Below are positions 4,991-29,584 of a stretch of DNA of 64,000 bases, piece after piece (within the stretch, counting starts at the first letter, position 1; every line of letters starts with the position of its first letter). The position numbers and the translations under genes were made by a program. The stretch comes from a virus, in IMG/VR virus record IMGVR_UViG_3300008266_000037, positions 1 to 64,000 of that record. One strand, given 5' to 3'. Under the pieces are notes generated by a model. That model did not search any database and was not told where the DNA came from. It was given only the letters and a program-made list of their open reading frames with translations.

Positions 4991-5287
4991 GTGAAAACGC
5001 CCCGTGATTTGATTGTCCCCTTCGAGGATGAGCCTAGCCAAGGGCTCATGGATATTGCGTGCAACGCGGGCACTATCAGGGTGTCGGCCAGAACGGGCGG
5101 TAAGGTTAGACTGCTGGTCGCGGATGACCATTGTGAGGCCGGTGGCCGATGGATTGATGGAAACGGCAAATGGTTGGGGGCGTCTCTGTCCAAAAATCAG
5201 GCCCTCGCCCTAATCCTCGCCCTGTCTGCTGCCACGCGTGAAGAGCCCATCATCAACAAGGCTGAAGAATGTCCCCTCGAAAGCTAA
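4991..5287 (+). CDS. small protein, member of multi-copy paralog family (C-terminal WxGxxLSKNQAxxLxxxL helix)
   Basis: 98 aa with GTG start after GGAGAG. Paralogous to the next gene. Confidence 0.5.
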   Translation: MKTPRDLIVPFEDEPSQGLMDIACNAGTIRVSARTGGKVRLLVADDHCEAGGRWIDGNGKWLGASLSKNQALALILALSAATREEPIINKAEECPLES

Positions 5288-5556
5288 TCGTTCCTTACGA
5301 AAGTCGTTCCGACTACCCGTCACTAGGCACGGTCGCTGGCAGAGACGGAATGGTCAGGGTCTATACCGCTAAATCGCTCCTCGGCGGAGGGCTTAAGCTG
5401 ACCATAACACGAAACCTCGACAACAAGGCAGCTCACGGGTGGAGCGGAGAGACCCCGGTCACCCTGAGCCGAGAGCAAGGACTGGCCTTTGTCCTCGCTA
5501 TTGTCAACGCGATTGCCCTCATGGACGAGAACGGAAATCAGAAAGAACCGGCATGA
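5269..5556 (+). CDS. small protein, paralog of 4991..5287
   Basis: 95 aa. Shares the LIVP(F/Y)E, G.VRV and C-terminal GW.G....LS(K/R)(N/E)Q(A/G)LA motifs. Confidence 0.5.
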   Translation: MSPRKLIVPYESRSDYPSLGTVAGRDGMVRVYTAKSLLGGGLKLTITRNLDNKAAHGWSGETPVTLSREQGLAFVLAIVNAIALMDENGNQKEPA

Positions 5557-6014
5557 ACCACTCCATCTACGACCTGATTGAAGAAAACATCGCCAGTCAT
5601 GGCCGCCATTTGATGGCTGTGTTTGGTGATGAGACAGCCATGGTACATCCCTTTGTGTACACAATCGGCAACCACACCAAGGGGCTTCCCGAACTGCTGA
5701 TGATCGGCAGCTGCGACAACGCAATCGGGCACATCCTCAACAACCTGTCCGAACAGATGATCAGTCAGGGCGGGGCGTTCAGCAACGGCGAGATCGTGCA
5801 TCCCTTTCCCGGCAACGAGAAGGTGTTCGGCTTGAAGATCATCAAGGCCAACCCCGAGGTGAAGGAAATCTACACCGTGCAGGCAGGGCAAGCCCTCCAA
5901 ACCGAGGACTACGCTGTCTTGCAGGTGGTGGCTCCCGGCACCAACGGTAAGTTTCCCGGCGAGGAAGGGGCTGACGATTCTTGGGGCGCTGTCCCCCTGT
6001 ATCCGGTTCAGTAA
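5553..6014 (+). CDS. DUF4262-like protein
   Basis: 153 aa from the ATGA-coupled internal ATG. Motif FVYTIGNHTKGLPELLMIG resembles the DUF4262 core (recalled from memory). Confidence 0.5.
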   Translation: MNHSIYDLIEENIASHGRHLMAVFGDETAMVHPFVYTIGNHTKGLPELLMIGSCDNAIGHILNNLSEQMISQGGAFSNGEIVHPFPGNEKVFGLKIIKANPEVKEIYTVQAGQALQTEDYAVLQVVAPGTNGKFPGEEGADDSWGAVPLYPVQ

Positions 6015-7858: not shown

Positions 7859-8718
7859 AGAAGACTCTCCTGAGGCTCGGCCTCATTGCTGCCCTGTCTC
7901 TGTCAGCTATCGGCCTTGTCGGCTGTGGTCAGCCCGTCAAGCAGGGTGAAGTCGGCGTGAAGGTGGTCGAAGTCGGCGGCAACGCTGGTGTTCGCAACAC
8001 CGAACTGGGCACCGGTCGCTACTGGAACGCCATCGGCGAACGAATCATCGTGTTCCCCACCACCACGCAGACCTACAACTGGACCGGCGGCGCTTCCATC
8101 CGGTTCCTCAACAAGGACGGTGTTCAGACCACCGCCCCCGTGTCCGTGACGTTCCGCGTTTCGCCGTCCAAGGCCAGCGATCTGGTCCAGACCTACAAGC
8201 TGGGCATGGAAGACATCGTCAACGGTCCGCTGCAACGCTACCTCCAGAACGCCTTCGTCGTGCGGGGTGTGGGGTACACCAGCGAACAGCTCTACGGCGC
8301 TGGCGCTCAGCAACTCTCAGCAGACGTGACCGAGATGCTCCGGCGTGGTTCACGAGATGCCTCTGGCCGGGTGGTTCAGCCCGGTCTGGAATCTCAGGGC
8401 ATCATCATCGAGTCGGTCAACTGGGCCGGAAGCCCGGTGCTTCCTGACTCCATCGTGGCCCGCATCAACGAGGCGACGGCGGAACGGCAGCTGGCATCCC
8501 GTGCCCGTGAACGTCTGGCGACCGCTCAGGCCAACGAGGCCGTGACCATCACCAACTCCAGAGCAAGGGCCGGTGCTCTTGATCTGGAAGGTGCCGCCAT
8601 CCGCCGCAATCCCGAGGTGCTTCGCCTTCGTGAAGTCGAGCGCAGCAAGGGCCTGTGTCCGTTGTCGGCCACCACCTGTGTGCTGGGCGGCGACGTGGCG
8701 GCGATGATCGGCAACTAA
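7855..8718 (+). CDS. SPFH/band-7 (HflK/C-stomatin-like) lipoprotein
   Basis: Lipoprotein signal MKKTLLRLGLIAALSLSAIGLVGC. SPFH-like beta-rich core followed by a long Ala/Arg/Glu coiled-coil. Confidence 0.65.
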   Translation: MKKTLLRLGLIAALSLSAIGLVGCGQPVKQGEVGVKVVEVGGNAGVRNTELGTGRYWNAIGERIIVFPTTTQTYNWTGGASIRFLNKDGVQTTAPVSVTFRVSPSKASDLVQTYKLGMEDIVNGPLQRYLQNAFVVRGVGYTSEQLYGAGAQQLSADVTEMLRRGSRDASGRVVQPGLESQGIIIESVNWAGSPVLPDSIVARINEATAERQLASRARERLATAQANEAVTITNSRARAGALDLEGAAIRRNPEVLRLREVERSKGLCPLSATTCVLGGDVAAMIGN

Positions 8719-8809: not shown

Positions 8810-9292
8810 ATGTCTAACATCAACGTCAATGACCCCAATGCCCTGACAATCCTGCATGACAAGCTGATCGCAGCGCACCGGGCTTTCTATACCGCTGACC
8901 CGAAAGAACAGCTCAGCCCGATGATCATCTTCTACACCCCGGACGGGACGGGCACCGCTGTGTCGTTTCATATGGACGGGGGCGAAGATAACAAGGCCTA
9001 CATAGCGCAGAAGATGAAGGCCATGTTCGCTGAGCAGAACGTGCAGATGTACGCCTTCTTCGCTGAAGCGTGGGCCGCTGCCTATGACAAGGGCAAGGTG
9101 GATGTGATGCCCTCCAAGCGAGAGGACAGGAAGGAGATCGTGTGCACGTTGGTGGTCCACCGAGACGGGCGCAAGATGTGCTCTGCCACTGAGATCAACA
9201 GGGACTGGGAGTCGGGCGGCGCTGTTCTTGGCAAGGTCGAGAACAGCGGAGACTCATTCGGCGGCAGGTTTGCGGAGTTGTTTGATGAGTAA
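8810..9292 (+). CDS. hypothetical protein
   Basis: 160 aa from the internal ATG, with AAGGAAAACGAG RBS. Confidence 0.5.
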   Translation: MSNINVNDPNALTILHDKLIAAHRAFYTADPKEQLSPMIIFYTPDGTGTAVSFHMDGGEDNKAYIAQKMKAMFAEQNVQMYAFFAEAWAAAYDKGKVDVMPSKREDRKEIVCTLVVHRDGRKMCSATEINRDWESGGAVLGKVENSGDSFGGRFAELFDE

Positions 9293-9557
9293 GTTTGAAG
9301 AAGCCAAGATGTCCGTCCATAGTTTTAACGGAAGCCCCGGACGGATTCTACTGTTTGTGTTGAGCAACGGAACAGGAATAAGGCTAGGGTGTTGGGACGC
9401 TGACTCCGCAGGCCTTGATGGAGAGCTTGCTTCTCGTGAAGACGGCATGGGATACACGGCCCTTAACCTTTCGTTTGATGACGCAAAGCAGCTGGCCATG
9501 CACCTTATGCGGATGGTCAGGGACGAAAAACTTTCTGGCGACCAAGATGATTCCTGA
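9285..9557 (+). CDS. small protein, member of multi-copy paralog family
   Basis: 90 aa. C-terminal YTALNLSFDDAKQLAMHLMRMV matches the family helix motif. Confidence 0.45.
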   Translation: MSKFEEAKMSVHSFNGSPGRILLFVLSNGTGIRLGCWDADSAGLDGELASREDGMGYTALNLSFDDAKQLAMHLMRMVRDEKLSGDQDDS

Positions 9558-10450: not shown

Positions 10451-11506
10451 ATGGCTCAACAAAAGACTTCGGACATCCCCGTTGTTTCGCCGATGGTGGC
10501 CAAGCAATGCGTCCGCGAGATGCTCAATGCTGGCTCCGCTGCGGTGCCGCCGTTCCTCTGGGGACCGCCCGGTGTCGGCAAGTCCGCCATCGTGAAGGGA
10601 GTGGCTGAAGAAGAAGGTGTCGGCTTCATCGACCTGCGTCTGGTTCAGCTCGATCAGGTGGACCTGCGCGGCCTGCCCTATCTGCTCGACGACAAGGTCA
10701 ACGAGGGCCTGCGCGAGATGCACTTCGCTGCCCCCGGCGGCCTGCCGCGCGAGGGTCGGGGCATCCTGTTCCTCGACGAGTTCCCGCAAGCCACCTCGCT
10801 TGTCCAGAACGCTGCCTCTGAGCTGGTCCTCGACCGTCGCTGCGGCGAGTACCGTCTGCCCGACGGCTGGATCGTCGTTGCTGCCGGCAACCGTCGTCAA
10901 GACCGTGCAGCCACGCAGGAACTGCCCAGCCACCTGAAGAATCGCTTCACCCATCTGGAAATCGACGCCAAGTTCGCCGACTGGGAAGCGTGGGCTCAGC
11001 TGCCGAACGCCACCAAGTGCGGCCCCATCGAGCCCCGGCTGCTCGCCTTCCTCCAGAGCAACCAGTCCCGCCTCAACAACTTCAACCCCGACACCGTGGC
11101 GTCGCCGACCTCCCGCAGCTGGGAGTTCGTCAGCCGTATCCTGCACACCGTCAAGGACAAGCGCGCTCGCAACGCCTTGATCGGCGGCGCAGTCGGCAAG
11201 GGGATGCAGGCCGAGGTCATGGCCTTCCTCTCCGACTCCGAGGACATGCCGACGATGGCGCAGATCATCGCCGACCCGATGACGGCACCCATCCCGGAGA
11301 CCCTGTCCGGCTGCAACGCCGCGCTGGACAATCTGGCCCTGACCGGCCGCCCTGAAAATGCTGAGCCCATTGCTCAGTACATCAGCCGCCACGTCGCCGA
11401 CAGCCAGATGGTCGCTCTGGTCCAGATCATGGCCCGCAAGGACATCACCTCGTGGATGTCTTCGCCCACTCTGGACAAGCTGATGAAGGCCAACGGCCTC
11501 TCCTAA
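10451..11506 (+). CDS. MoxR-family AAA+ ATPase
   Basis: Walker A GPPGVGKS. Walker B ILFLDEF. Sensor-1-like VVAAGNRR. AAA_5/CbbQ-NorQ-like layout. Confidence 0.8.
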   Translation: MAQQKTSDIPVVSPMVAKQCVREMLNAGSAAVPPFLWGPPGVGKSAIVKGVAEEEGVGFIDLRLVQLDQVDLRGLPYLLDDKVNEGLREMHFAAPGGLPREGRGILFLDEFPQATSLVQNAASELVLDRRCGEYRLPDGWIVVAAGNRRQDRAATQELPSHLKNRFTHLEIDAKFADWEAWAQLPNATKCGPIEPRLLAFLQSNQSRLNNFNPDTVASPTSRSWEFVSRILHTVKDKRARNALIGGAVGKGMQAEVMAFLSDSEDMPTMAQIIADPMTAPIPETLSGCNAALDNLALTGRPENAEPIAQYISRHVADSQMVALVQIMARKDITSWMSSPTLDKLMKANGLS

Positions 11507-11528
11507 TCGGGCGGCACATCCAACCAGC

Positions 11529-11565
11529 GGGGGAGGGGAGCAATCCTCTCCCCCATTTCTTTTCG
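11529..11565 (+). terminator. GGGGGAG...CTCCCCC hairpin + U-rich tract between MoxR and VWA genes
   Basis: 7-bp G/C stem followed by ATTTCTTTTCG. Possible attenuator setting the ATPase:VWA ratio. Confidence 0.4.
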
Positions 11566-11573
11566 AGGGACCG

Positions 11574-12800
11574 ATGAGCAAACAAGAACAGCAGTACAAG
11601 GCCACGCAGTATGTGCGTGAAGCGATCGAGTCCATGATCGAGCGAGACCCCTTCTTCGGTCACATCACCGACCAGATGCGTCTGTGCCCCGACGCCAAGA
11701 AGGAGATCAAGACCATCGGCACCAACGGTCGTCTCCTCGTGTACGACAGCGAATGGGTGGTTCGTTATCGTGAGGTTTATGGCCCCGCCAAGTTCGCCAC
11801 CATCCTCGCTCACGAGGCGGCACACGTTGCGTTCGGCCACCCCTACCGCATGGGCGACAAGCGCCCCGAGATCTACGACAAGGCGTGTGACGCCGTCATC
11901 AACGGCAACCTTCGTCGCAAGGGCTATGACATGCCCAACGAAAGCTTCTTCTTTCCCGGCGCTGAGGACATGACGGTCGAGGAGTGCTACCGCAAGCTGG
12001 TGGAAACCAGCGGCGAGGGGCAGGACAAGAACAACCAGCGCACCCGACAGGCTCAGAGTAGCGGCAAGTGTTTCTCCCCTGATGTCGGCACGGATGCTGA
12101 AGAAGAAGCCAAGGCCAAGGGCGAAAGCGAAGGTCAGGGCCAAGGTCAGGGCGACGAGGACGAGGACGCCGAGGACAAGATCCGCGAGGGCGTTGCCCGT
12201 GCTGCTCAGCGTGCCCGCAAGGCTGGCAAGATGCCCGGCGAGTGGGAGCAGATGATCACCGACTCATTCCTCAGCAAGAAAAGCTGGAAGGATGAGCTGC
12301 GTCAGTTCCTCGGTGGCGGCGAGCAGAAGGAACCTTCTTGGTCCAAACCCAACCGTCGCTATGTCCATCAGGGCGAGTACCTCCCCGGTCCCTCGAAGTT
12401 CGGCCCCGGTCGTATCGTGCTGGCCGTTGACGTTTCCGGCTCTGTCTCCGGCTCTCTGGTCGAGAAGTTCTGCGCTGAGGTGCGCAAGATCAACATCGAC
12501 CTTCAGCCCGAAGCCATCGACGTTATGACCTGCGACACCCGTGTTGCATGGCAGGAGGAGTTCGGACCTTATGATGATGTCCAGATCCCTGCTAGGGCCA
12601 TCACCGGTGGCGGCACCAACTTCTCTCCTGTGTTCAGGAAGGTCAAGGAGATGGGCGTCCAGCCCAAGGCTCTGGTGTACTTCACCGATCTGCAATGCCA
12701 CGACTTCGGCGAGAGGCCTGACTACCCTGTTCTCTGGGTTGTCTGGCCCGGCGGCTGGAACAAGGCACCGTTCGGCAACATCGTTCACATGGATGACTAA
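11574..12800 (+). CDS. VWA-domain protein with N-terminal zincin-like metallopeptidase domain (DUF2201-type MoxR partner)
   Basis: HEAAHVAFGH HExxH motif. Acidic GQGQGDEDEDAED linker. MIDAS-like DVSGSVSGS in the C-terminal VWA domain. Confidence 0.8.
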   Translation: MSKQEQQYKATQYVREAIESMIERDPFFGHITDQMRLCPDAKKEIKTIGTNGRLLVYDSEWVVRYREVYGPAKFATILAHEAAHVAFGHPYRMGDKRPEIYDKACDAVINGNLRRKGYDMPNESFFFPGAEDMTVEECYRKLVETSGEGQDKNNQRTRQAQSSGKCFSPDVGTDAEEEAKAKGESEGQGQGQGDEDEDAEDKIREGVARAAQRARKAGKMPGEWEQMITDSFLSKKSWKDELRQFLGGGEQKEPSWSKPNRRYVHQGEYLPGPSKFGPGRIVLAVDVSGSVSGSLVEKFCAEVRKINIDLQPEAIDVMTCDTRVAWQEEFGPYDDVQIPARAITGGGTNFSPVFRKVKEMGVQPKALVYFTDLQCHDFGERPDYPVLWVVWPGGWNKAPFGNIVHMDD

Positions 12801-12802
12801 CC

Positions 12803-13057
12803 ATGAAGACCATCTACATAGACGACCTCAACTCCGGATACGGTAACGGGTTTGTCTTTGCCACTCCCTCACCCAATCAATCATTTGAAGACGGAGACGC
12901 GATGATCATCCGCACGCCGTACTACGTCGAGCGGGACCACATCATTCTCTCCACCCTCGACGATGGCGAGGAAGCCCGCTTCCGCAGGCTGAACAAGAGA
13001 GACGCTCTTGAGCTTGCCAAGTGGCTCATGATCGCAGCAAGGGACATGGCAGAATGA
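12803..13057 (+). CDS. small protein, multi-copy paralog family
   Basis: 84 aa. C-terminus RRLNKRDALELAKWLMIAA. Confidence 0.5.
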   Translation: MKTIYIDDLNSGYGNGFVFATPSPNQSFEDGDAMIIRTPYYVERDHIILSTLDDGEEARFRRLNKRDALELAKWLMIAARDMAE

Positions 13058-13329
13058 ACGAGATGGACAAGGACAAAATCCACGAAACCGAAACCATCTT
13101 CACGGTGGAAGTTGGACCGACCAAACACGACGACAGTTACTTTACTGTCGGTGTTGGTCGCGGAAATCTTCCTTGGGCAGGGAAGCAAGGAAGCTTTGGG
13201 TGTGTCGGAACTGATTTGGCCATCTTCCAGACGGGGTCACATGACTACGTTTACCTGTCGAAACGTGAGTGCCTAGAGATGGCGGTTGCTTTTGCCAAGG
13301 CGGCGGCAAGGATGAAGGACAGGAAATGA
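13054..13329 (+). CDS. small protein, multi-copy paralog family
   Basis: 91 aa from the ATGA-coupled ATG. C-terminus YLSKRECLEMAVAFAKAA. Confidence 0.5.
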   Translation: MNEMDKDKIHETETIFTVEVGPTKHDDSYFTVGVGRGNLPWAGKQGSFGCVGTDLAIFQTGSHDYVYLSKRECLEMAVAFAKAAARMKDRK

Positions 13330-13628
13330 ACGAACACCACGCAGGTTATTACGGCTGGGCTGAAGCCAAACACGACGGCGTGCCCACCTCTTATGGCTGG
13401 TCCATCCAGACCATGAACCTGAACACAGTATTCCTTCCTCCATGTCCGGGCAAGAAACACGCTATGGATTTGCGAGGCCGTCCGGGTGACGGCGAAGACG
13501 TTCTTTCCCTACAGTACATCGCTGACGGCAGGTCCAGCTGGATGCCGATCACAGAGGAGCAGGCTATGGCCTTCGCTCGTCACTTGATCTTTGCTGTTCG
13601 TGCCAACCGGGAAGCGCGCGGGTCATAG
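13326..13628 (+). CDS. small protein, multi-copy paralog family
   Basis: 100 aa from the ATGA-coupled ATG. C-terminus WMPITEEQAMAFARHLIFAV. Confidence 0.5.
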   Translation: MNEHHAGYYGWAEAKHDGVPTSYGWSIQTMNLNTVFLPPCPGKKHAMDLRGRPGDGEDVLSLQYIADGRSSWMPITEEQAMAFARHLIFAVRANREARGS

Positions 13629-15010: not shown

Positions 15011-15253
15011 ATGGACGCGAGTACCGACAGGAGTGTCGTGCTGAGGCATCTATCCCTCCTAACCAAGGAGTATGTCGCCACACTACGCCACACCCAGAAC
15101 GGGCACACTTCTTACACAGCCCAGTCAGTTAGGGGTGGAAGGGTTGGAGACGCCATCTGTCGAGACCGTCTCCACAGGATAAAGAAGACCCTCAACCTAG
15201 ATCCCACGGGTCCGCCATTTTATTCCCCCCCTGATCAAGAACAGAGAAAATAA
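15011..15253 (+). CDS. hypothetical protein (overlaps primase 3' end)
   Basis: 80-aa ORF overlapping the convergent primase gene by ~60 nt. Confidence 0.3.
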   Translation: MDASTDRSVVLRHLSLLTKEYVATLRHTQNGHTSYTAQSVRGGRVGDAICRDRLHRIKKTLNLDPTGPPFYSPPDQEQRK

Positions 15254-17018
15254 CCTTCCGTCCCTGATGGGCGAATGGCTGGTCTGAGTACCGCCCCGTC
15301 TCTCTGTCATGGTGAAGGTCAGCCTTTCCCTCTGAGCCCGTCCATGCAAAGCGGGTCTTCCAGTTGTGGACTTCCGTTATGCGTCGGTCTTCCACTGGGC
15401 GGTGGATAGTCAGGCCAAAGTCCGGCCGGTTGTACCAGCTAGCTGAGCCGCTGATCTCGTACCCCTTCGGAACCACAGTGCTCCCATCGACGTTTGGTCT
15501 GAGCTTGTAGGGGTGGGCAATCAACCAGAGAGCCACGTCATGAGACACAGCGAACCCCTTGAACGCCTCCAGCATGTGGCCAACAGGGTCGGACGAACCA
15601 TCGCCGTCAGCCTTAGGTCTGGCAAGGTAGGATGCAGGGTCAACAACAGCGCCCCTCACGCCATACCTGAGGACAGAAGTCTTAAGCCTGTCGATCACGC
15701 TGTCCGGGCTGGTGCTCCCCCCGTCTCCGGTCAGGAACACGAAGTGATCATTGACCCACTCAAGCGCCGCATCCAGTTCCGTATCCGTGATGCGTGGGAG
15801 ATCTCCTCCACCGAAGAAGGGTTTCTCCACATAGAGCGCCGCAAGGCATGAGATCTGCACCTCTGGTGTGGTTTCCGTTGACCAGATAGCGAAACGCCAG
15901 TCGTGTTCACGGGCCATGTTGACCATCACGGCGTTGAGGAATGTCGTTTTGCCCGAGCCGGGCGCTCCGGTGATCACACACAGATGCCCCGGAACCACCG
16001 TGTAAAGGTCATCAAGGGCGGTGAACCCCGTTGTCATGCCTTTGCCAAGGCCGCCCGTGTAAAGGGCCCTGACGCCCTGTTCGTAATGGGATGCGCCATA
16101 CACACCAGCGATGGGCCACGGCTCAGGGTTAGCAAGGCAATGCTTCAGCTTCTCGACGCCCTCTTTCACGAGAACATCGTTGGCGTCCTTGCATCCCTCA
16201 GGCCAGACAATCCGCCACGCTCTAGCCTTACCAATGCGGCGAGCAAGCTCCTCCCCTAGGGCCTTACCAGGCTCATCGTTATCAACGGCGATGATGATGC
16301 GGCTGGCGTTGGCGAGGATGTCCTTACCAGACCAGACGTACTTGAAGCGCTTGTCCTCCTCCGGCGTGATCTTACCATCACTCACCTTAAGAGGCGCCCC
16401 GTTCGGAACGGACACCACGTTACCTTCACCAACCTCTACCAGAGAGAGGGCATCCATCTCTCCCTCAACGATGTAGAGATCCTTCTCTGGCTCAATCTTC
16501 TCCGACCTCCAGAAAGTTCCTGCACCACCAGCCTGCACAAACAGCTTGCTGTCCCCTGTGCGGATCTTGTGTGCGTAGGGTTTGCCCTTCTCGTCGATGT
16601 AGGGGAACCACACGCCCTCATGCCTGCCGTTGCCGGGAAAGCCATAGACAGAACTGAACACGCCCTCTGCCTCTGCGGTGCTGGCTGAGATCGCCCTTCT
16701 CGCTAGCCACCCAAGGGCTGCGTCGGACAGGGTCTTGGGACCAACCACATCGACAGCGTCCTCAACGGCTGACAGAAACACTTCAGTGGTTGGGAAGGGG
16801 GTAGGGGTCATTCTGTAGGGTTCCGTTTTGTTTGAGTGGACGCCAGCCCAGTTGCAGTTGTGGCAAAACCATCGCCACTCACCACGGTCAACCGTGACCG
16901 AGAGGCACCTCTCAGTCCTTTTCTTCCTGCCCTCTGAGCACTCAGGACAGGTGATGCGATGGGAGCCGGCGCCAAGGGACGTGATCTGGAAAGGCGCTTC
17001 CGCAGCTAGCTGTCTCAA
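15192..17018 (-). CDS. bifunctional DNA primase/helicase (zinc finger-TOPRIM-DnaB-like SF4 helicase)
   Basis: CPEC...CHNC zinc ribbon. TOPRIM IVEGEMDALSL. C-terminal RecA-fold with Walker A GAPGSGKTT. TTG start. Confidence 0.85.
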   Translation of the reverse strand: MRQLAAEAPFQITSLGAGSHRITCPECSEGRKKRTERCLSVTVDRGEWRWFCHNCNWAGVHSNKTEPYRMTPTPFPTTEVFLSAVEDAVDVVGPKTLSDAALGWLARRAISASTAEAEGVFSSVYGFPGNGRHEGVWFPYIDEKGKPYAHKIRTGDSKLFVQAGGAGTFWRSEKIEPEKDLYIVEGEMDALSLVEVGEGNVVSVPNGAPLKVSDGKITPEEDKRFKYVWSGKDILANASRIIIAVDNDEPGKALGEELARRIGKARAWRIVWPEGCKDANDVLVKEGVEKLKHCLANPEPWPIAGVYGASHYEQGVRALYTGGLGKGMTTGFTALDDLYTVVPGHLCVITGAPGSGKTTFLNAVMVNMAREHDWRFAIWSTETTPEVQISCLAALYVEKPFFGGGDLPRITDTELDAALEWVNDHFVFLTGDGGSTSPDSVIDRLKTSVLRYGVRGAVVDPASYLARPKADGDGSSDPVGHMLEAFKGFAVSHDVALWLIAHPYKLRPNVDGSTVVPKGYEISGSASWYNRPDFGLTIHRPVEDRRITEVHNWKTRFAWTGSEGKADLHHDRETGRYSDQPFAHQGRKVIFSVLDQGGNKMADPWDLG

Positions 17019-17081: not shown

Positions 17082-17354
17082 ATGCCCATCGTTGAAGCGA
17101 TCAAAACCAAAACCAATCTGGGTGACTCTGTCGTCGTTCAATCGAATAACCCGTTCGACGAACACGGCATCGGCGGTTCGATAACGCTGAGGCTGGAAAA
17201 AGAAGAGGGGAAAATCCTCGTCAGGTCAACCGCTGATTACCGCCCTGAAGCAGATCCATCTGGATTCAGAAGGGGGTGGCAATGCGGCCTAACCAAAGAT
17301 CAGGTTATCTGCCTGGCCCGTGAACTCATCAAGATGTCCAGAGACCTGCCATGA
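17082..17354 (+). CDS. small protein, multi-copy paralog family
   Basis: 90 aa. C-terminus RRGWQCGLTKDQVICLARELIKM. Confidence 0.5.
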   Translation: MPIVEAIKTKTNLGDSVVVQSNNPFDEHGIGGSITLRLEKEEGKILVRSTADYRPEADPSGFRRGWQCGLTKDQVICLARELIKMSRDLP

Positions 17355-17572
17355 CGAAGAAGAAAATGCCTGATTTGCTGATTGAGACCAAGACTATGTG
17401 CGGAGGTCAAATCACATTTGACCAAAGACACACGGAGGAGGGTGACGACATTGCGGCCGTCAACACGATGGACGGTGCCGGTGGTCGCGGCTGGTACGTT
17501 GGGCTGAACAAGGAACAATGCCGTGAGGTTATTATTTACCTTGCTAAATGTATGGCTGGAAGAACTGAATAA
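17351..17572 (+). CDS. small protein, paralog of 17082..17354
   Basis: 73 aa. C-terminus GRGWYVGLNKEQCREVIIYLAKCM. Shares the GG.IT.....EEGD core. Confidence 0.5.
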   Translation: MTKKKMPDLLIETKTMCGGQITFDQRHTEEGDDIAAVNTMDGAGGRGWYVGLNKEQCREVIIYLAKCMAGRTE

Positions 17573-18412: not shown

Positions 18413-18741
18413 TCCTGACTGGCCGGTCCATCCCAAGAGGTAATCATGTCTGACAGCTGGCAGGTCAGAACCTTTCGGTAGATGGGGTTGTCTGATTCCA
18501 TTGCCTCTCGAATGGCGGTGCTGAGCGATACCGGCTCTAGCAAAGCCAGCTCACAGACCTGACGGTAGTCGTTGGTGTCCAGCCATACAGCGGCCTCAAG
18601 AGCCACAGCTGCATCCACGCTTGCCATGTCGCGTATGCTCTGTGAGATGACCGCTCTCCACATCATAACATACTTCTTGTCTTCGTGGTCCAGCCTGTCC
18701 CACGCCCCGTCCAGATCTTCTGGGTCCATCCAGTCGGTCAT
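18397..18741 (-). CDS. hypothetical protein
   Basis: 114-aa ORF, coupled downstream of rusA. Confidence 0.5.
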   Translation of the reverse strand: MTDWMDPEDLDGAWDRLDHEDKKYVMMWRAVISQSIRDMASVDAAVALEAAVWLDTNDYRQVCELALLEPVSLSTAIREAMESDNPIYRKVLTCQLSDMITSWDGPASQDQEPA

Positions 18742-19148
18742 TCTGTCCCTCCTGCGTAGTCTGCCGATGTCATCAGGCGAACCGTAACCAGAATCCCCGG
18801 CTTGATGGCGCTAAGCCCCCACCTGACCCGCCTTGATTTGACCTGCCTGTCGTTGGCGTAGATGGTCCCTTGCATCAGATCTAGGACAAGGCTTTCGTCT
18901 AGGTCCCTTCGCCGGTCTGGGTAGTAGATGTCCATATCAAGGTGAACGTCCTCGGTGAACAGGAGCGGAAGCACCGGGCACTGAGCGAGAAAGGCATTTG
19001 AGAATGCCAGAGCGTTTTCACTTTTGATTGATCGAAGCCGACTTCCGCTTGGCGTTTTCACGTTGACAAGTCGGCGGCTGTTCGCCTTACTATAGGGAGC
19101 GCCGTCGATCCAGAAGGTGAACGGTTCCGTTCGTCCGACAGGAGACAT
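18738..19148 (-). CDS. rusA: RusA-family Holliday junction resolvase
   Basis: PDRRRDLDESLVLDLMQGTIYANDRQV matches E. coli RusA PDRRRRDLDNL...DDAQV. Start chosen at the internal ATG with AAAGGA RBS. The ORF extends to 19208. Confidence 0.7.
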   Translation of the reverse strand: MSPVGRTEPFTFWIDGAPYSKANSRRLVNVKTPSGSRLRSIKSENALAFSNAFLAQCPVLPLLFTEDVHLDMDIYYPDRRRDLDESLVLDLMQGTIYANDRQVKSRRVRWGLSAIKPGILVTVRLMTSADYAGGTE

Positions 19149-19250
19149 GGCCAGTCCTTTCGTGAGTAGGCTGGACACAACCCATAGACCACGATCTACC
19201 ACGGTCAACTATATGTTGATTTCGTTCTCTCTTTGTCCACAGGAGTTACT

Positions 19251-19536: not shown

Positions 19537-19974
19537 ATGCCGTGGAAAAACAAAGGACTGCCCCCCGGTGTGACCGCGAACCCGGTCGAAGCTGGCCTTC
19601 TGCGGAGGCTTCAGCAGGCCGCCCGCATGGCCCGGTACAACGCTGACGAAGCGGAAGACATCTCTCGGGCTGGAGTTGAGGCCGCTTCTCGCCACATCGA
19701 GACGACTTGCCCGGACATGGACTTCATTGTCATCGGGTCGGTTCCCTTCGGCGCCGACGCTCGGGCTGGCAAAGGCCCCGGCAACGCCATCTCCCAACGC
19801 ATCACGGGAGGCCCTCTGCTGGGCGCCAGCATGAGGGAGGACGTGATCCCCCAACAAGCCCGCTATTTCACGGAGTCTGGCAGCGCATGGACGACCTTCA
19901 CATCCCGGCTGTTGATCTGCTGGAAGATCCTCTTCGGAGCGAACCCGGAGGGGTACAGCCGAAAGGACCTGTGA
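19537..19974 (+). CDS. hypothetical protein
   Basis: 145 aa from the internal ATG with GGAGTAAAGCA RBS. Confidence 0.5.
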   Translation: MPWKNKGLPPGVTANPVEAGLLRRLQQAARMARYNADEAEDISRAGVEAASRHIETTCPDMDFIVIGSVPFGADARAGKGPGNAISQRITGGPLLGASMREDVIPQQARYFTESGSAWTTFTSRLLICWKILFGANPEGYSRKDL

Positions 19975-20576
19975 TCAAAACAGAATGGACGGAGGAGGAG
20001 GACCAGTACCTTATTGACATGATCAATATGGGCTGGACCTACCGACAGGTTGCTAGCGGCCTTAATGTTACAAGGCCGATAGGGGGTAAGCTAACCCGAA
20101 ACGCAATCGCCGGAAGAAAGTCCCGCCTCATACTCAAGGGCAGGGACATCAAAAAACCCAACCACAAGATACTCACCGCCCACGCAAACAGGCAGAAGCC
20201 TAAGCCCAAACCAAGAAAGGAGAGGGTCGTGACCAGTAAGATCAAGACTGTGGCCCCCGCTCCGGAACCAGTTCGGGTGAGGAGCGCAGCGACCGGGCAA
20301 CTTAAGCCCGTCCGTCCCGGCGTCCTGCCGATGGTGGAGGGTGCCAAGACCATAACTGAACTGGGCTATCGGCAATGCAGGGCAGCTGTGGGTGAAGCTC
20401 CTCGTATGCATGACGGGGTAAACAACCCGTTTATGTTCTGTGCTGCGCCCACCAGAGAGGGTGAGACCTACTGCGATGAGCACGCCGGTCTCATGTACGC
20501 TGCGCCAAAGCCAAAAGCTGAAGGAGACAGGGGCTTTATCCTGTCTCGCATTGGAACCAACAAGGGAGCCGCATGA
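19971..20576 (+). CDS. gcrA: GcrA-family cell-cycle regulator homolog
   Basis: N-terminus WTEEEDQYLIDMINMGWTYRQVA...LTRNAIAGRKSRL. C-terminus FMFCAAPTREGETYCDEHAGLMYAAPKPK. Both GcrA-signature regions present. GTG start after AAGGA. Confidence 0.7.
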   Translation: MIKTEWTEEEDQYLIDMINMGWTYRQVASGLNVTRPIGGKLTRNAIAGRKSRLILKGRDIKKPNHKILTAHANRQKPKPKPRKERVVTSKIKTVAPAPEPVRVRSAATGQLKPVRPGVLPMVEGAKTITELGYRQCRAAVGEAPRMHDGVNNPFMFCAAPTREGETYCDEHAGLMYAAPKPKAEGDRGFILSRIGTNKGAA

Positions 20577-21275: not shown

Positions 21276-21466
21276 TGGACAGGATTGATTTGGATGACGA
21301 TGGCCAGCTTGACGATCTGGTTCTCAACGATGTGTCCATGGTTCGGGTTGAGAGGATGGACGATGCCGCTCTCTGGATGAAGTTCTATGGCGCAGACGGG
21401 AGGGAACACGCGGTCAGGGTTGGTATTGTCGAAAAGAAGCTGAGGATTTTGTACGAGGAAGAGTAG
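21272..21466 (+). CDS. hypothetical protein
   Basis: 64-aa ORF. Confidence 0.4.
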   Translation: MMDRIDLDDDGQLDDLVLNDVSMVRVERMDDAALWMKFYGADGREHAVRVGIVEKKLRILYEEE

Positions 21467-22353
21467 TGAAGTTCACCAACAAGCACCGTCTGCCTGAGCC
21501 CCTTGTCCGCGCCCTGTCGGCTGACAAGTACTCGAAGGGGGATGCGCGCATCTCGATCACGGGACTGATGGGGTCTCCGCGCGTTAACGTCCTGCGCTCG
21601 AAACACCATGCCGACATTGAGACCGACGTGATGGACCGGCTCTGGTCTGTGTTCGGCACCACCGTTCACAACATGCTGGAGGAGGGCAGCGCGGGTCTGG
21701 ATGACTACATTGCCGAGGAGCGCATCGACACCGTTCTTGACGGCTGGAAGATCTCTGGCGGCATCGACGTTCAGCACTTCACCGATGGTCAGGTCGGTAT
21801 CCGAGACTGGAAGGTCACGGGCGCATGGGCGGTTATGAACAACAAGCCCGACTGGGAACGGCAGCTCAACTCCTATGCCTATCTGGTCGAGAAGGAGAAC
21901 GGTCACACCGTCAAGGACATTCAGATCGGTGCCATCATCAGGGACTGGAAACGGTTTGAGGCCGACAGAAATCCTGACTACCCAAGAACCCCAGTGGTCA
22001 TGGTGGACATTCCCTTGTGGGGCTTCAAGGCAAGGGAGCAGTACCTGCTGAGCAGGATAGCCCTGCACAAGGAGGCTTACCGGAAGGCTGAATGGGGTGA
22101 ACCGCTACCGCCCTGCACTCCAGATGAAATGTGGGAGAAGCCCACTGTGTACGCTGTGAAGAAGCCGGGAAGTTCGAGGGCAATCTCCCTGCACTCCAGC
22201 AAGGATGAGGCGCTAGACAAGGCGATCAAGACCAAGAACAGCATGGAAACAAGGCTGGGCGAAAGAACGAAGTGCGAGGGCGGGTATTGCGAAGTGTCGG
22301 CCTTCTGTGATCAGTTCGCGGAGTACAAGAGGCTGAAGGCGGAGAGACAATGA
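21466..22353 (+). CDS. PD-(D/E)XK nuclease, Cas4/RecB-exonuclease-like with C-terminal Cys cluster
   Basis: Motifs GGIDVQHF, IRDWKVT and QLNSYAYL. Cys cluster C(PPC)...CEGGYCEVSAFC, four Cys in all. Confidence 0.65.
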   Translation: MKFTNKHRLPEPLVRALSADKYSKGDARISITGLMGSPRVNVLRSKHHADIETDVMDRLWSVFGTTVHNMLEEGSAGLDDYIAEERIDTVLDGWKISGGIDVQHFTDGQVGIRDWKVTGAWAVMNNKPDWERQLNSYAYLVEKENGHTVKDIQIGAIIRDWKRFEADRNPDYPRTPVVMVDIPLWGFKAREQYLLSRIALHKEAYRKAEWGEPLPPCTPDEMWEKPTVYAVKKPGSSRAISLHSSKDEALDKAIKTKNSMETRLGERTKCEGGYCEVSAFCDQFAEYKRLKAERQ

Positions 22354-22865
22354 GTGAGGTTTGGCTTCCGGTTCCGGGTTTCTACCTTGAGGCCAGCAGC
22401 GAGGGGCGGGTTCGTTCCACGCCGAGAACGATTGTCCGAAAGAACGGCGCGCCGCAGTTCTGTCCCGGCAAGGTGTTGACGCCCAATCCCGGCAACAAGT
22501 ACGGCCACCTTTATGTGACGGCAAGGGCCATCGGTTCCGAGAAGCAGAACTACCACGCAGTCCACGCCCTTGTGGCTCTGGCCTTCCATGGCCCTAGGCC
22601 AGACGGTCAGATCACCAGACATGAGGATGGGGACCTGACGAACAACCGGCCTTCCAATCTCAAGTACGGGACCTACACCGACAACAAGGCGGACGAGGCC
22701 ATTCACGGAAGGGGAAGGGCGAGATTGCTCCGGCATGAAGTAGACACTATGCGTGTGCTGAAGCTATACGGCGTGAAGAACAAAGACCTGAGCAGGATGT
22801 TTTCCATCGACCCCGGACAGGTCAGCAAGATCTGTTCTGGCAAGTCGTGGGTATTTGAAGAGTAG
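22350..22865 (+). CDS. HNH homing endonuclease (HNH_3/NUMOD4-type)
   Basis: Motif VHALVALAFHG...RHEDGDLTNNRPSNL. Confidence 0.7.
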   Translation: MSEVWLPVPGFYLEASSEGRVRSTPRTIVRKNGAPQFCPGKVLTPNPGNKYGHLYVTARAIGSEKQNYHAVHALVALAFHGPRPDGQITRHEDGDLTNNRPSNLKYGTYTDNKADEAIHGRGRARLLRHEVDTMRVLKLYGVKNKDLSRMFSIDPGQVSKICSGKSWVFEE

Positions 22866-23606: not shown

Positions 23607-23928
23607 AGAAGACAAACCTATCCCTGAGGGCATGAAGAGATACACCATGCTGGGCCTCAGCATTGTGGCTCCCGACGGTATCCCTGAAGAACTGATTGGT
23701 GCCATCATCGAGGGCATGGTTCAGTCTGGTCATGCCGTGTTTGACCCTGTAACCAACACGCTCAAGAGCAATCCGGATATCATTGACGGGGAAATCCAAG
23801 GCCTGTCCATGCAGGTCGATGGTCTGGGCAACGTGGTCAACTCTCGGGCGCTCAGCCGCAATGAGATCAAGGACGATCTCGGCATCGACGAAATCAACTT
23901 CAACAAACCGCCTCGCCGCAAACTGTGA
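23599..23928 (+). CDS. hypothetical protein
   Basis: 109-aa ORF. Confidence 0.45.
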   Translation: MNEEDKPIPEGMKRYTMLGLSIVAPDGIPEELIGAIIEGMVQSGHAVFDPVTNTLKSNPDIIDGEIQGLSMQVDGLGNVVNSRALSRNEIKDDLGIDEINFNKPPRRKL

Positions 23929-24308
23929 AGCCGACCGGCTGGAAAATCGAGGAAGTCCAGCCGGAAAAGCGGCGTTCGCTTTCAGCGAAAGAAAAGCTTG
24001 ACGTTCTAAAATCCCACCCCCATTGTCCGATCTGCCGATCAGAGGTCAGTGTCAGCGATGCCGAATGGGATCACTGGATACCGCTCGAACTGGGAGGCTC
24101 CAATGAGGTGGACAACTTTCGAGGACTGCATCCGCCCTGTCATAAGGAAAAGACCCGACAGGACGTGAAGGCAATCGCCAAGGCTAGACGGCTTCGCAAG
24201 AAACGTCTCGGCCTGACGAAACCCAAGAAGGCCATTCCTTCTCGTCCATTCGCAAAGAGGAAGAACAGCTTTGAGACCCGCAATAGAAAGGCTCCTCGAA
24301 AGGATTGA
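23925..24308 (+). CDS. HNH endonuclease
   Basis: Motif CPICRS...EWDHWIPLELGGSNEVDNFRGLHPPCHKEKT. Confidence 0.7.
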   Translation: MKPTGWKIEEVQPEKRRSLSAKEKLDVLKSHPHCPICRSEVSVSDAEWDHWIPLELGGSNEVDNFRGLHPPCHKEKTRQDVKAIAKARRLRKKRLGLTKPKKAIPSRPFAKRKNSFETRNRKAPRKD

Positions 24309-24738
24309 GCCTGACACGAACGGGGGGTGCTGGCTTTGGTCGGGCTCTCCCGGCCAGAACGGCTATTCCCAGATACAGGTTGGTACAACAAGAGGAAACC
24401 AGCGACCGCACCCAGGCCACCGTATTTCGTACGAACACTTCAAGGGGGAGATCCCCGAAGGGTTGGTTGTCCGTCATAAATGCGACGTAAGATTGTGTGT
24501 GAACCCAGACCATCTTGTGGTTGGAACCCGCCGGGAGAATGTTCAGGACGCAAAAGACCGAGATCGTCATGCTCGCGGCGAGCGATTTAACCGAGCCAAG
24601 CTGACCGACGCCGGGGTTATGGAAATCCGTCGTCGATACGCTGACGGAGAAACACAGCCCTCCTTGGCCAAGGAGTATGGCGTATCACAGACTACAATCA
24701 ACTCGGTGTGTCAGAGAAAGTCCTGGTCTCATGTCTAA
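24271..24738 (+). CDS. HNH homing endonuclease (HNH_3-type) with C-terminal HTH
   Basis: Motif GCWLWSG...HRISYE...VRHKCDVRLCVNPDHLVVGTRRENVQD. TTG start after AAGAGG. Confidence 0.65.
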   Translation: MRPAIERLLERIEPDTNGGCWLWSGSPGQNGYSQIQVGTTRGNQRPHPGHRISYEHFKGEIPEGLVVRHKCDVRLCVNPDHLVVGTRRENVQDAKDRDRHARGERFNRAKLTDAGVMEIRRRYADGETQPSLAKEYGVSQTTINSVCQRKSWSHV

Positions 24739-25507
24739 AAAAATCCATACAGCTCTGGTGGCCGCCGCCAAAGAGATCCCCCATCTTCGCAAGGGAGAGC
24801 AAAACGCCCACGGCAACTATGCGTACGTCCCGATTGATGGGTTTTACGAACAGGTTGCTCCGATCGTTCTGAAGCACGGGCTCACATGGAGAGTGAGGGA
24901 GGTGTCGTGCGAGACCTTTGAGGTGCAAGGGCGCTCCCGAATGGAGACCGCCGTCAGGACCACCTACGAGGTAGATGTAATGCACGAGGAGGGAGATATC
25001 ATCTCCTCCTTCTTCAGGGCCACGATCACCCACCCCCTGCAAGGGGCACAGACCGCTGGTTCCAGTATGTCCTATCTGGACAAGCTGTTTCTTCGCACCA
25101 CCTTCCACGTCGTCACGGGAGAGAAGGATGCCGACGCAACCGACAATGCCGTTTTCGACGCTGGACCAGCTAATGCTGGAGGTGGGCAGGGACGGGGCAA
25201 GGGTGCGGCAAAGCCGAAAGGCCAAGGCGCTGAACCGGATGCGTTCGACCTTGGGGGAACAGCACACCCATCCCCAGCTTCAGTACGCCCTGCTGACACA
25301 GGAGCCTTTGCGGCAGACGCCAAGGCCTTCACGGAACTGTCCGTTGCCTTCATCGGCTCCGCCTCCACCGAGGAAGAGCTGACCAAATACTGGACGGACA
25401 ACGAGAGCACGTTCAACCAGCTTAAGACAGCAGACCCAGAGGGTTACAAATCCCTGATCGCTGGCTTTAAGACCCGCAAGACCCAGCTGAAAGGAGCTGA
25501 TGCGTGA
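24731..25507 (+). CDS. erf: ERF-family single-strand annealing protein
   Basis: NAHGNYAYVPIDGFYEQVAPIVLKHGL and MSYLDKLFLRTTFHVVTGEKDADATDN resemble P22 Erf core blocks. Confidence 0.65.
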   Translation: MSKKIHTALVAAAKEIPHLRKGEQNAHGNYAYVPIDGFYEQVAPIVLKHGLTWRVREVSCETFEVQGRSRMETAVRTTYEVDVMHEEGDIISSFFRATITHPLQGAQTAGSSMSYLDKLFLRTTFHVVTGEKDADATDNAVFDAGPANAGGGQGRGKGAAKPKGQGAEPDAFDLGGTAHPSPASVRPADTGAFAADAKAFTELSVAFIGSASTEEELTKYWTDNESTFNQLKTADPEGYKSLIAGFKTRKTQLKGADA

Positions 25508-26724: not shown

Positions 26725-27150
26725 ATGGCGGATTTGCCTAGCAAACACGCCGTTCACTTCGAGGCGGTGAAGATCGCCATGAACCAGACCAAGGATGGGT
26801 GGAAGCTCATCCTTGCGGTTCACCCTAACGATGCACCCGAGGAAGTTCTTCGGGCGCTCGTTGGGGCGAGGTACATGATCGCCGCCGTTGAGTTGGATGA
26901 GCATGAGCAGCCGAAGCCCCTGTTGAGCGATGCCGAGAAGGATGTTCGGTATGCTGGTCAGCTGTGCCGCACACCCGCCTTTGCCACTTGGATGTGGAGC
27001 AGGGGCTGGGCTCAGGAGATGACAGAGGCGTCTGCTGCCGATGGCCTTAGGCTAGTGCTGGGGATCGCTTCTCGATCAGAGATCGCCACCAATGAAGATG
27101 TAAGAAGGAGATTCCGTGAGCTTGCCCAATCCTACTTGGACGATAGCTGA
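26725..27150 (+). CDS. hypothetical protein overlapping integrase start
   Basis: 141 aa. 35-nt overlap with int, in the position an xis-like gene would occupy. No clear HTH. Confidence 0.45.
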   Translation: MADLPSKHAVHFEAVKIAMNQTKDGWKLILAVHPNDAPEEVLRALVGARYMIAAVELDEHEQPKPLLSDAEKDVRYAGQLCRTPAFATWMWSRGWAQEMTEASAADGLRLVLGIASRSEIATNEDVRRRFRELAQSYLDDS

Positions 27151-27952
27151 CCTGATCAGCTCATACCGGGGCAGTCGGCACAACCGGCTTCTTGCTCCGG
27201 CCACCCGAAGAAATACCGAGAAGACCTACCGATGGCTGGAACCGTTCAAGGACCGGCTTCTGGACACCATCACCAAGGCTGAGATAAGCACGGTTATCGA
27301 CGGCCTGCCTGCTGGCAACGCTCACATCTTTCTGTCCCGCGTTCGCGCTTTGTTCAGCTACGCTCGCTCGCTGGAAGAGATGACCAAGGACCCCTGTGTA
27401 GGCCTCACCACGCCTGCTACTGGTGAGTACCGACCTTGGACCCAGAAGGAAGTAGACGCCTTCCTGAAGGGCTCCAGCGACACTGTGGGCATGGCTGTGA
27501 AGCTGGCCTATTACACCGGCCAGCGGATGAGTGATGTCCTGACCATGAAGTGGAACGACATCCGGGACGGCGGTCTGGATGTTGTGCAGATGAAGACGAA
27601 GCAGCCGCTTCACATTCCCCTGCACCCTAAGCTGAAGGCCGCCCTGAAGAAGCACTCTCAGGGCAGCAAGTCCGATTACATCATTGCCATGAAAGACGGC
27701 AGGCCCTACACCCCGCATGAGTTTCGTGGTCGTTTTCGGGACACCCGCATCGCTCTTGGTTTGCCCGACGATATGGTGTTCCATGGGCTTCGCAAACTGA
27801 CGGCGGTCAACCTCGCCGAGAAGGGCGCCTCTACGCAGGAGATCATGGCTGTTGGTGGGTGGAAGTCCTCTCGCCAAGTGGACCACTACTGCAAGGGGTC
27901 TAATCAACGTAAGCTGGCCAAGCAGGCCATTGGAAGACTGGGAGCCCTGTGA
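27116..27952 (+). CDS. int: tyrosine integrase/recombinase
   Basis: R in YYTGQRMSDV. HxxR in FHGLRK. Catalytic Y in VDHYCK. GTG start after AAGGAG. Confidence 0.8.
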   Translation: MSLPNPTWTIADLISSYRGSRHNRLLAPATRRNTEKTYRWLEPFKDRLLDTITKAEISTVIDGLPAGNAHIFLSRVRALFSYARSLEEMTKDPCVGLTTPATGEYRPWTQKEVDAFLKGSSDTVGMAVKLAYYTGQRMSDVLTMKWNDIRDGGLDVVQMKTKQPLHIPLHPKLKAALKKHSQGSKSDYIIAMKDGRPYTPHEFRGRFRDTRIALGLPDDMVFHGLRKLTAVNLAEKGASTQEIMAVGGWKSSRQVDHYCKGSNQRKLAKQAIGRLGAL

Positions 27953-29200: not shown

Positions 29201-29277
29201 GCGCCCTTAGCTCAACTGGATAGAGCACCAGCCTTCTAAGCTGGGGGTTTCAGGTTCAAACCCTGAAGGGCGCGCCA
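29201..29277 (+). tRNA. tRNA-Arg (anticodon TCT), CCA encoded
   Basis: Manual cloverleaf. Acceptor GCGCCCT/AGGGCGC. D-arm GCTC-AACTGGATA-GAGC. Anticodon arm CCAGC-CTTCTAA-GCTGG. T-arm TCAGG-TTCAAAC-CCTGA. Discriminator G + CCA. Confidence 0.85.
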
Positions 29278-29279
29278 AT

Positions 29280-29355
29280 GTGCCGGGTGGTCCAACTGGT
29301 AGGGGCGCCCCGTACGCGGAGGAGGTGGGGGTTCAAGTCCCTCTCCGGCACACCA
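29280..29355 (+). other. tRNA-like element (canonical acceptor, D-loop, T-arm and CCA; anticodon arm does not fold canonically)
   Basis: Acceptor GTGCCGG pairs with CCGGCAC, then A + CCA. D-loop AACTGGTA. T-loop GGTTCAAGTCC. Possible pseudo-tRNA or attP core, 2 nt after the tRNA-Arg. Confidence 0.45.
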
Positions 29356-29368
29356 ATCCACGGAAGCT

Positions 29369-29584
29369 ATGCGAAAGAACTCTGCCCTCCCTAGGCTGAT
29401 TGCCCGCCTCCAAGAAGGCCCTCTAAAGGGAACCGACTGGAGACAATGCTCTCACAGTCAGCACACCCTGTATGAGAACATCCGCAGGCTTCGGTCTATG
29501 GGGTGGGACATACGGACGATAGGGGATTCCGGTAGGCCCGGAGAGTATATCCTTATAGCCCCGCCTGACGTTCCAGTTCCCTGA
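29369..29584 (+). CDS. hypothetical small protein (possible DNA-binding)
   Basis: 71-aa ORF ending convergently against the giant gene. Confidence 0.35.
   Translation: MRKNSALPRLIARLQEGPLKGTDWRQCSHSQHTLYENIRRLRSMGWDIRTIGDSGRPGEYILIAPPDVPVP

Follow-up and report, generated by a model that had tools for sequence, protein, structure and literature searches.

A family of small paralogous proteins confined to one clade of metagenomic phages, with a probable PC4-like half-domain fold

Introduction

Whether eight small genes lying in four places of a single phage genome form one family, and what their products might do, is the question raised by IMG/VR virus record IMGVR_UViG_3300008266_000037. Positions 1 to 64,000 of that record were analyzed and are called the window throughout; these 64,000 nucleotides (nt) make up most of a 68-kb phage contig that is seen in several metagenomes. 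A sequence-only reading of this DNA had proposed a multi-copy family of tandem, translationally coupled, and diverged paralogs with a possible role in host interaction or anti-defence. All eight open reading frames (ORFs) are indeed present on the plus strand, at or near the expected places. They encode proteins of 73-100 amino acids (aa) and are designated here A1 (4991-5287) and A2 (5269-5556), B (9285-9557), C1 (12803-13057), C2 (13054-13329), and C3 (13326-13628), and D1 (17082-17354) and D2 (17351-17572).

The first part of the question has a firm answer, since the eight genes are confirmed as one real paralogous family. The reading favored for the second part is tentative, and its probability falls somewhat short of even. 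According to this reading, these clade-specific, fast-evolving paralogs would be dimeric PC4-like half-domains whose variable sheets bind nucleic acid.

Evidence for a Single Paralogous Family

Direct comparison of the eight proteins by BLASTP is significant only for A1 and A2 (36% identity over 90 aa, expect value (E) 2e-7) and for C2 and D2 (E 1e-3). Most pairs being individually non-significant, a rival explanation has to be weighed, in which the eight ORFs are non-homologous and their C-terminal pattern reflects chance, composition, or a repeated DNA element. In a leave-one-out test with profile hidden Markov models (HMMs), each left-out member ranks first among 849 six-frame ORFs, at E 6e-4 to 0.24 (for instance, rank 1/849 at E 6e-4 for A1, and rank 1 at E 7e-4 for D2 and at E 3e-3 for C1). 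This test is biased and not independent because the sequence-only reading had picked the genes by their motif, a circumstance that also speaks for the non-homology view.

Related genomes tell against that view. An HMM built from the eight sequences, as the sequence-only reading had suggested, was run on all six-frame ORFs of syntenic loci from four related metagenomic phages assembled from sequencing runs (L007, L008/L009, L010, and L011/L012). It added 18 ORFs to the original eight, with E from 3e-12 to 9e-4; 18 of 18 are called small genes, with no spurious frame among them, and iteration of the HMM converges towards 40 unique members. The relatives found in this way are confined to one phage clade.

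Moreover, members were grouped by genome position only, namely before DUF4262 (GA), after DUF4262 (GE), before the ATPase gene (GB), after the VWA gene (GC), and beside the primase-helicase gene (GD), and each group was aligned separately before profile-profile comparison. Comparisons between the group profiles yield E-values from 1.5e-8 to 7e-5, apart from one pair, GD-GE, at 2e-3. Most of these matches span the last ~25 columns, while GA-GB extends over 63 columns (E 1.5e-8), GB-GD over 56, and GA-GD over 41. Reversed-sequence controls gave E 0.6-1 in HMM searches and P 0.01 or worse in hhalign, so the similarity goes beyond composition.

A repeated DNA element does not explain the pattern either. 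Within the motif, identity at codon positions 1, 2, and 3 is 0.45, 0.60, and 0.30, respectively, and the low identity at third positions (30% against 60% at second positions) means that conservation acts on the protein rather than on a DNA repeat. A loose regular expression of the motif finds seven of the eight members and five other matches among the 849 six-frame ORFs, none of which lies near the C-terminus of a small ORF. Size, tandem layout, and motif location, which is 8-17 residues from the C-terminus in all members, agree as well. The matches in related genomes, the group profiles, the reversed controls, and the codon-position identities thus refute the non-homology view, to which hardly any probability can be assigned.

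Arrangement of the Genes and Their Orthologs

The A pair opens the series. A1 (98 aa) has a GTG start with AGGAG upstream and carries the motif LSKNQALALILAL at 5186-5224; the same 98-aa gene is called in contig L021. Its tandem partner A2 (95 aa, motif at 5464-5502) shares 19 nt with A1 and 4 nt with the DUF4262 gene downstream. Orthologs of A2 are P0010, P0014, P0015, P0017, and P0018, with 31-56% identity, and they always lie upstream of DUF4262 wherever DUF4262 is present. In the near-identical strain contig L020 (4696-5204, corresponding to 4991-5556 of the window), the A1/A2 region is called as a 79-aa and a 68-aa gene; these shorter calls could stem from another choice of start codons or from variation of the array between strains.

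B (90 aa), present as a single copy in the window, overlaps an upstream 161-aa gene by 8 nt and has its motif, LSFDDAKQLAMHL, at 9468-9506. Its ortholog is found in L008 at 15243-15482 (46% identity, E 6e-15).

The C array follows directly 3' of a gene for a DUF2201 metallopeptidase/VWA protein. Its first gene, C1 (84 aa, motif LNKRDALELAKWL at 12989-13027), clusters with L008 19500-19751 and L010 8553-8822. C2 (91 aa, motif LSKRECLEMAVAF at 13255-13293) is joined to C1 by an ATGA overlap, and its ortholog in L010 (46% identity, E 5e-15) is duplicated there (8033-8290 and 8293-8550). C3 (100 aa, motif ITEEQAMAFARHL at 13548-13586) is joined to C2 by another ATGA overlap and has an ortholog at L011 17323-17625, with 43% identity over 102 aa (E 4e-21).

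D1 (90 aa, motif LTKDQVICLAREL at 17289-17327) is divergent from the primase-helicase gene (15192-17018, minus strand). Its orthologs, P0013 and L012 9720-10004 (45% identity), also stand beside a primase-helicase gene. D2, the shortest member (73 aa, motif LNKEQCREVIIYL at 17504-17542), overlaps D1 by ATGA; its ortholog is P0012, identical to L012 10001-10219 (51% identity, E 2e-21), and an extra paralog occupies L012 10212-10436.

In sum, overlaps are of 4 nt for C1/C2, C2/C3, D1/D2, and A2 with the next gene, and of 19 nt for A1/A2. Overlaps between neighboring members fit translational coupling, and, together with the HMM and group-profile matches, they uphold the description of the genes as tandem, coupled, and diverged paralogs. 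Equally tight packing joins members to unrelated flanking genes.

Family Distribution and Divergence

The window holds eight members and no further one, as judged by HMM iteration and motif scan. The relatives, which are partly sampled, have 8-12 members each at E <1e-3, and up to 11-14 when weaker syntenic ones are included. BLAST clustering yields ~14 subfamilies, and for every member in the window an ortholog is encoded by one or more of the other phages. Lineage-specific tandem duplications are seen in L010 (8033/8293), in L012 (10001/10212), and in the window (A1/A2), and there are losses too.

The DUF4262 protein (5553-6014, plus strand; E 1.7e-19), which is 61-67% identical between phages (window, L007, L008, and L011), always follows the A-type pair on its 3' side. 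Behind it, the relatives have a 2-3 gene family array; the window is without the subfamily that forms the three-gene array after DUF4262 and has in its place a 148-aa protein that hits phrog_722, an ORF of 68 aa, and a conserved protein of 193 aa. Related phages also encode longer members, which carry the family domain at the C-terminus and whose genes are read from the other strand, flanked by the terminase and a BCS1-like ATPase (L008 735-1304, minus strand, 189 aa; L011 238-657, minus strand, 139 aa). The start of the window falls inside the ortholog of the gene downstream of the terminase block, and a ninth member may lie just outside it. In the related phage contigs, a protein with a DnaA C-terminal domain and the BCS1-type AAA ATPase adjoin the terminase.

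Beyond this clade, the family is hard to find. When 1.84 billion representative proteins were searched exhaustively with a profile, 16 hits resulted, and most of the non-artefact ones are proteins of the phage under study or fragments of these; clear homologs from elsewhere number seven (P0010, P0012-P0015, P0017, and P0018), and the contigs that encode them are the syntenic phage genomes introduced above. P0009 and P0016, being long repetitive proteins, were rejected as artefacts. To judge from this search, the family is specific to one metagenomic phage clade. With the 8-sequence profile, a word-indexed search through 5.8 billion proteins returned only the eight proteins and near-identical variants of them, and a 44-sequence MAFFT profile used in the same way was diluted and gave four hits.

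Additionally, tblastn of the family consensus found nothing in 50,697 phage records, the iterated HMM had no match in N4, LUZ7, or DSS3phi2, no close match came out of IMG/VR scans with the VWA protein, A2 orthologs, and the ATPase alignment, and a scan of JGI metagenomes found fragments of the same phage only. When the eight proteins, 44 members, and six consensus sequences were scanned against Pfam, PHROGs, NCBIfam, and PADLOC, scattered hits at E >=0.004 appeared, none of them common to more than three of the 44. That no named family could be assigned from the sequence alone was therefore correct, and on the evidence of these database scans the family is a new one, absent from Pfam and PHROGs.

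Ortholog identity within the family is 31-51%, compared with 72-87% for the ATPase, the VWA protein, the primase-helicase, and a conserved 171-aa protein; most of the remaining accessory proteins show 44-67% identity between related phages. The description of the family as rapidly diversifying thus stands insofar as its members evolve faster than core genes and vary in copy number. It does not stand as a full account, in that every member in the window belongs to a subfamily retained by one or more other phages and the shared motif reads as structural. The retained subfamilies point to long-term upkeep of distinct functions, not pure turnover, and their fixed genome positions across phages favor stable distinct roles over an arms race.

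These figures bear on another rival, which spells out the host-interaction or anti-defence role suggested by the sequence-only reading. In it, the paralogs would differ in the host or defence protein that they bind, each through its own hypervariable sheet and loops, the conserved helix and sheet serving as an inert scaffold, with no nucleic acid bound and any PC4 likeness convergent or irrelevant. A multi-copy, clade-restricted family without relatives elsewhere would suit such protein binders, as would orthologs that diverge far faster than core proteins and a copy number that shifts through tandem duplication and loss. Subfamilies kept at conserved positions fit stable housekeeping-type roles better than an arms race, and the genes are embedded in a replication module, not in a variable accessory island.

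Conserved Motif and Predicted Fold

The C-terminal motif read from the sequence is present in all eight members; its opening W-x-x-x-L is exact only in D1 and D2, and the others have W, Y, or F at 3-9 residues before the Leu. In an alignment of 40 members, strand 4 ends in a Leu (column 56, 30/40, always hydrophobic) that is followed by Thr, Ser, or Asn (column 57, 39/40), then by Lys or Arg, by Asp or Glu (column 59, 30/40), and by Gln or Glu (column 60, 35/40), after which Ala is found in 25/40. In the helix (columns 61-72), apolar or small residues predominate at 11 of 12 positions, and columns 64 and 68 are invariably hydrophobic. Columns 56, 57, 59-60, 64, and 68 are the best conserved positions of the family.

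Ser/Thr/Asn-x-x-Glu/Gln is the classical helix N-cap, or capping box. The conserved motif reads as a structural element, consisting of a strand end, a helix N-cap, and a buried apolar helix, and not as a functional site. Apart from the motif, turn glycines recur at columns 21, 35, and 49, strand 2 has a semi-conserved Arg, strand 3 closes with Thr/Asn-x-Asp, and strand 4 is preceded by an aromatic residue.

An AlphaFold2 model of A2, computed from an alignment of 19 sequences, has a predicted local distance difference test score (pLDDT) of 85.2 and a predicted template modeling score (pTM) of 0.71. It places strands at residues 20-23, 28-33, 42-47, and 64-66 and a helix at 68-83, bearing out the beta-rich N-terminal part and the conserved C-terminal helix that had been proposed from the sequence. 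The model of A1, for which the alignment held only the eight paralogs, is poor (pLDDT 62) and consists of several strands and then a single C-terminal helix.

[quoted passage not shown] The fold is probably half of a PC4-type nucleic-acid-binding domain and, as such, an already known one. In a Foldseek search of the PDB with the A2 model, the best ten matches are all PURA repeats, with probability of up to 0.94 and template modeling (TM) scores of up to 0.70 on the target, but with E of only 0.5-4. The phage T5 PC4 homolog appears lower in the same list, and a search of a viral structure library gave nothing significant. A designed leucine-rich-repeat protein, the only low E-value of a PDB profile search, was set aside as a repeat artefact in which the helix motif alone was matched and no stretch passed.

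Comparison with known systems brings out several differences. The type II PC4-like proteins include the C-terminal domain of human PC4, the phage T5 PC4 homolog 4BG7, YdbC/DUF2128, SP_0782, and Borrelia Pur-alpha (PMC7549692). In contrast to them, the family is without significant sequence or profile similarity, is mostly acidic where PC4-like domains are basic, has a far more apolar helix, and occurs as 8-14 paralogs per genome where the known ones are single. The PUR repeats of Pur-alpha (8CHW, 5FGO, 3K44, and 8CHT) share 6-15% identity at the Foldseek E of 0.5-4, and their PUR signature is absent from the family; in eukaryotes such repeats lie within one polypeptide, whereas the family members are separate small proteins.

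AcrIIA22 (7JTA), an anti-CRISPR nickase encoded by clostridial prophages, is likewise small and PC4-like (PMC8545432). Unlike the family, it is single-copy, has no C-terminal helix, and oligomerizes via beta strands, and it is absent among the structural matches listed for A2. The N-terminal domain of KhtT (7AGW), a regulatory domain that is fused to RCK_C in a subunit of a bacterial K+/H+ antiporter, shares 6% identity and offers no functional or genomic parallel.

Proposed Function and Alternatives

In the favored reading, the members would be small cytoplasmic phage proteins, presumably expressed early or in mid-infection. Each would form one beta-beta-beta-beta-alpha unit, i.e., half of a PC4-like domain, with the motif as its structural core: a strand ending in Leu, a Ser/Thr/Asn cap with an Asp/Glu-Gln capping box, and an apolar Ala/Gly-rich helix. 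Because this helix is apolar nearly all round and is unfit for the surface of an ~80-aa monomer, we infer that the proteins form homo- or heterodimers by pairing helix against helix, the mode seen in type II PC4-like proteins. Genes that adjoin and overlap could supply the two partners of a heterodimer. This would leave the four-stranded sheet, which is poorly conserved, as the ligand face, and by analogy with all characterized PC4-like proteins its ligand would most likely be single-stranded or distorted nucleic acid. The ~14 subfamilies may be specialized for distinct DNA or RNA transactions in replication, recombination, or defence evasion. The predicted fold class, the replication and recombination context, and the acidic C-terminal tails of several members (e.g., DDEF and EDEDDA) speak for this reading, as do the retention of subfamilies from phage to phage and the fact that no single-stranded DNA-binding protein (SSB) was recognized among the window proteins or on record for the relatives.

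Several observations weigh against it. Beyond its recurrent positions, the sheet surface is variable, and most members are acidic, with a median isoelectric point of 5.1 and values above 7.5 in 4/44; neither suits a generic nucleic-acid binder. The structural similarity scores are weak, and a unit of four strands and a helix is simple enough that convergence could account for it. Pfam PC4 (PF02229), PurA, and DUF2128 were unmatched by the 44 members at E <=1 and by the six consensus sequences at E <=10. A comparison by hhalign with PC4, for which the alignment was narrow (six sequences, eukaryote-only), gave P 0.0065 and a probability of 6%, on a par with the reversed controls. To our knowledge, 8-14 paralogs are also unlike any known PC4-like system.

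The hhalign result also bears on a further rival, according to which the proteins are diverged true homologs of PC4/PUR that act as single-stranded DNA (ssDNA)-binding cofactors of replication or recombination and take the place of the SSB that was not recognized, a role of the kind proposed for the PC4 homolog of phage T5. PC4-like domains are what the fold matches point to, the tails of several members are SSB-like in their acidity, Erf and an exonuclease are encoded as well, and in four of the five position groups the best alignment puts the start of the family helix (Leu, cap, Asp/Glu, and Gln) on or beside GISLNPEQW of PC4. The sequence of that PC4 segment was confirmed and has the same N-cap device. 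The shared pattern 'L-S/T/N-x-E-Q' is, however, a generic helix N-cap, which explains why the alignment falls there without beating the controls. PC4 homology by sequence was accordingly rejected, the register being suggestive but the score equal to that of the reversed profiles. Moreover, the proteins are acidic overall, and many paralogs are unexpected for an SSB role. We regard true homology of this kind as improbable.

The binding of host or defence proteins, introduced above, gains from some of the same observations, for the acidity of most members, the restriction of conservation to structural positions, and the weak match to PC4-like domains would all be in order for a protein binder. 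It is also compatible with a PC4-like fold, because AcrIIA22 is both PC4-like and anti-defence. Against it stand the lack of similarity to known anti-defence or defence-associated families and the lack of any anti-CRISPR among the structural matches listed. Taken by itself, this idea is on the unlikely side, and it is about as likely as the nucleic-acid reading.

A bolder reading goes further. Here, the ~14 half-domain subfamilies would share one apolar pairing helix and mix into many homo- and heterodimers, so that varied pairs of sheets become available for nucleic acids or host proteins, with adjacent translationally coupled genes supplying the preferred dimer pairs. Such a combinatorial toolkit is a long shot.

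Genomic Context

The plus-strand block that contains the family also holds the genes for the DUF4262 protein, an SPFH lipoprotein, the ATPase/VWA pair, Erf (24677-25507), a PD-(D/E)XK exonuclease (21466-22353), HNH endonucleases, and a GcrA-like protein. The primase-helicase gene and a RusA-like resolvase gene (18738-19208, minus strand) lie on the opposite strand within it. Three HNH endonuclease genes stand within 2.4 kb amid the replication and recombination genes (22350-22865, 23925-24308, and 24271-24738, plus strand) and are probably homing endonucleases. A DNA polymerase was not recognized in the window, where several ORFs of 100-290 aa drew no assignment.

The region 10451-12800 (plus strand) encodes a MoxR/AAA-type ATPase, which is N4 gp24-like with at most 36% identity to known phages, and then the DUF2201 metallopeptidase and VWA protein, which is N4 gp25-like. 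The latter is labeled 'HNH endonuclease' in PHROGs and in many GenBank records, a label that its Pfam domains do not support. A giant ORF (29553-39359, minus strand, 3268 aa) matches, over its C-terminal ~900 residues, the giant function-unassigned PHROGs 14770, 616, and 10691 (E 1e-131 to 1e-63), with a weak match to a DarB-like antirestriction PHROG; no PHROG annotated as virion RNA polymerase was matched. This ORF and the gp24/gp25-like pair had suggested an N4-like phage (Schitoviridae). That assignment was rejected after the PHROG scan, with no DNA polymerase or RNAPII seen and with a tyrosine integrase present; only the ATPase and the DUF2201 protein are shared with N4-like phages. A role of the family as N4-style ssDNA-binding transcription cofactors was dropped together with it. 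The ORF at 49969-51210 was rejected as major capsid protein and is a tail-fibre protein.

A tyrosine integrase gene (27116-27952, plus strand; Pfam Phage_integrase 1.3e-25, phrog_1 6e-42) lies ~1.2 kb upstream of two adjacent tRNA-Arg genes (29201-29355, plus strand; anticodons TCT and ACG), and a temperate lifestyle is possible, with attachment at a site linked to a tRNA. The GcrA-like cell-cycle regulator gene, with Pfam GcrA on record, is found at ~19707-20576 (plus strand) of the window and at 6097-6702 of L001. GcrA is not known outside Alphaproteobacteria and the phages of this group, and this gene therefore suggests an alphaproteobacterial host.

Significance

Paralogous ORFan families are common in phages, and the finding bears on no long-standing question. 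If the fold holds, its interest lies in a PC4-like half-domain amplified to 8-14 diverged paralogs in one viral genome, for which we know of no earlier case; the phage PC4-like examples known to us, the T5 PC4 homolog and AcrIIA22, are single-copy. Such a family would offer, in compact and natural form, a system in which to ask how a single beta4-alpha scaffold serves many specificities and whether paralogs heterodimerize, and the architecture of a half-domain with a shared helix yields a concrete hypothesis of combinatorial dimers. Additionally, about 10% of the genes in the early/middle region of a phage clade known from metagenomes only would gain a structural hypothesis. Should the toolkit reading prove true, the family would represent an undescribed viral route to diversified binding specificity from one minimal scaffold.
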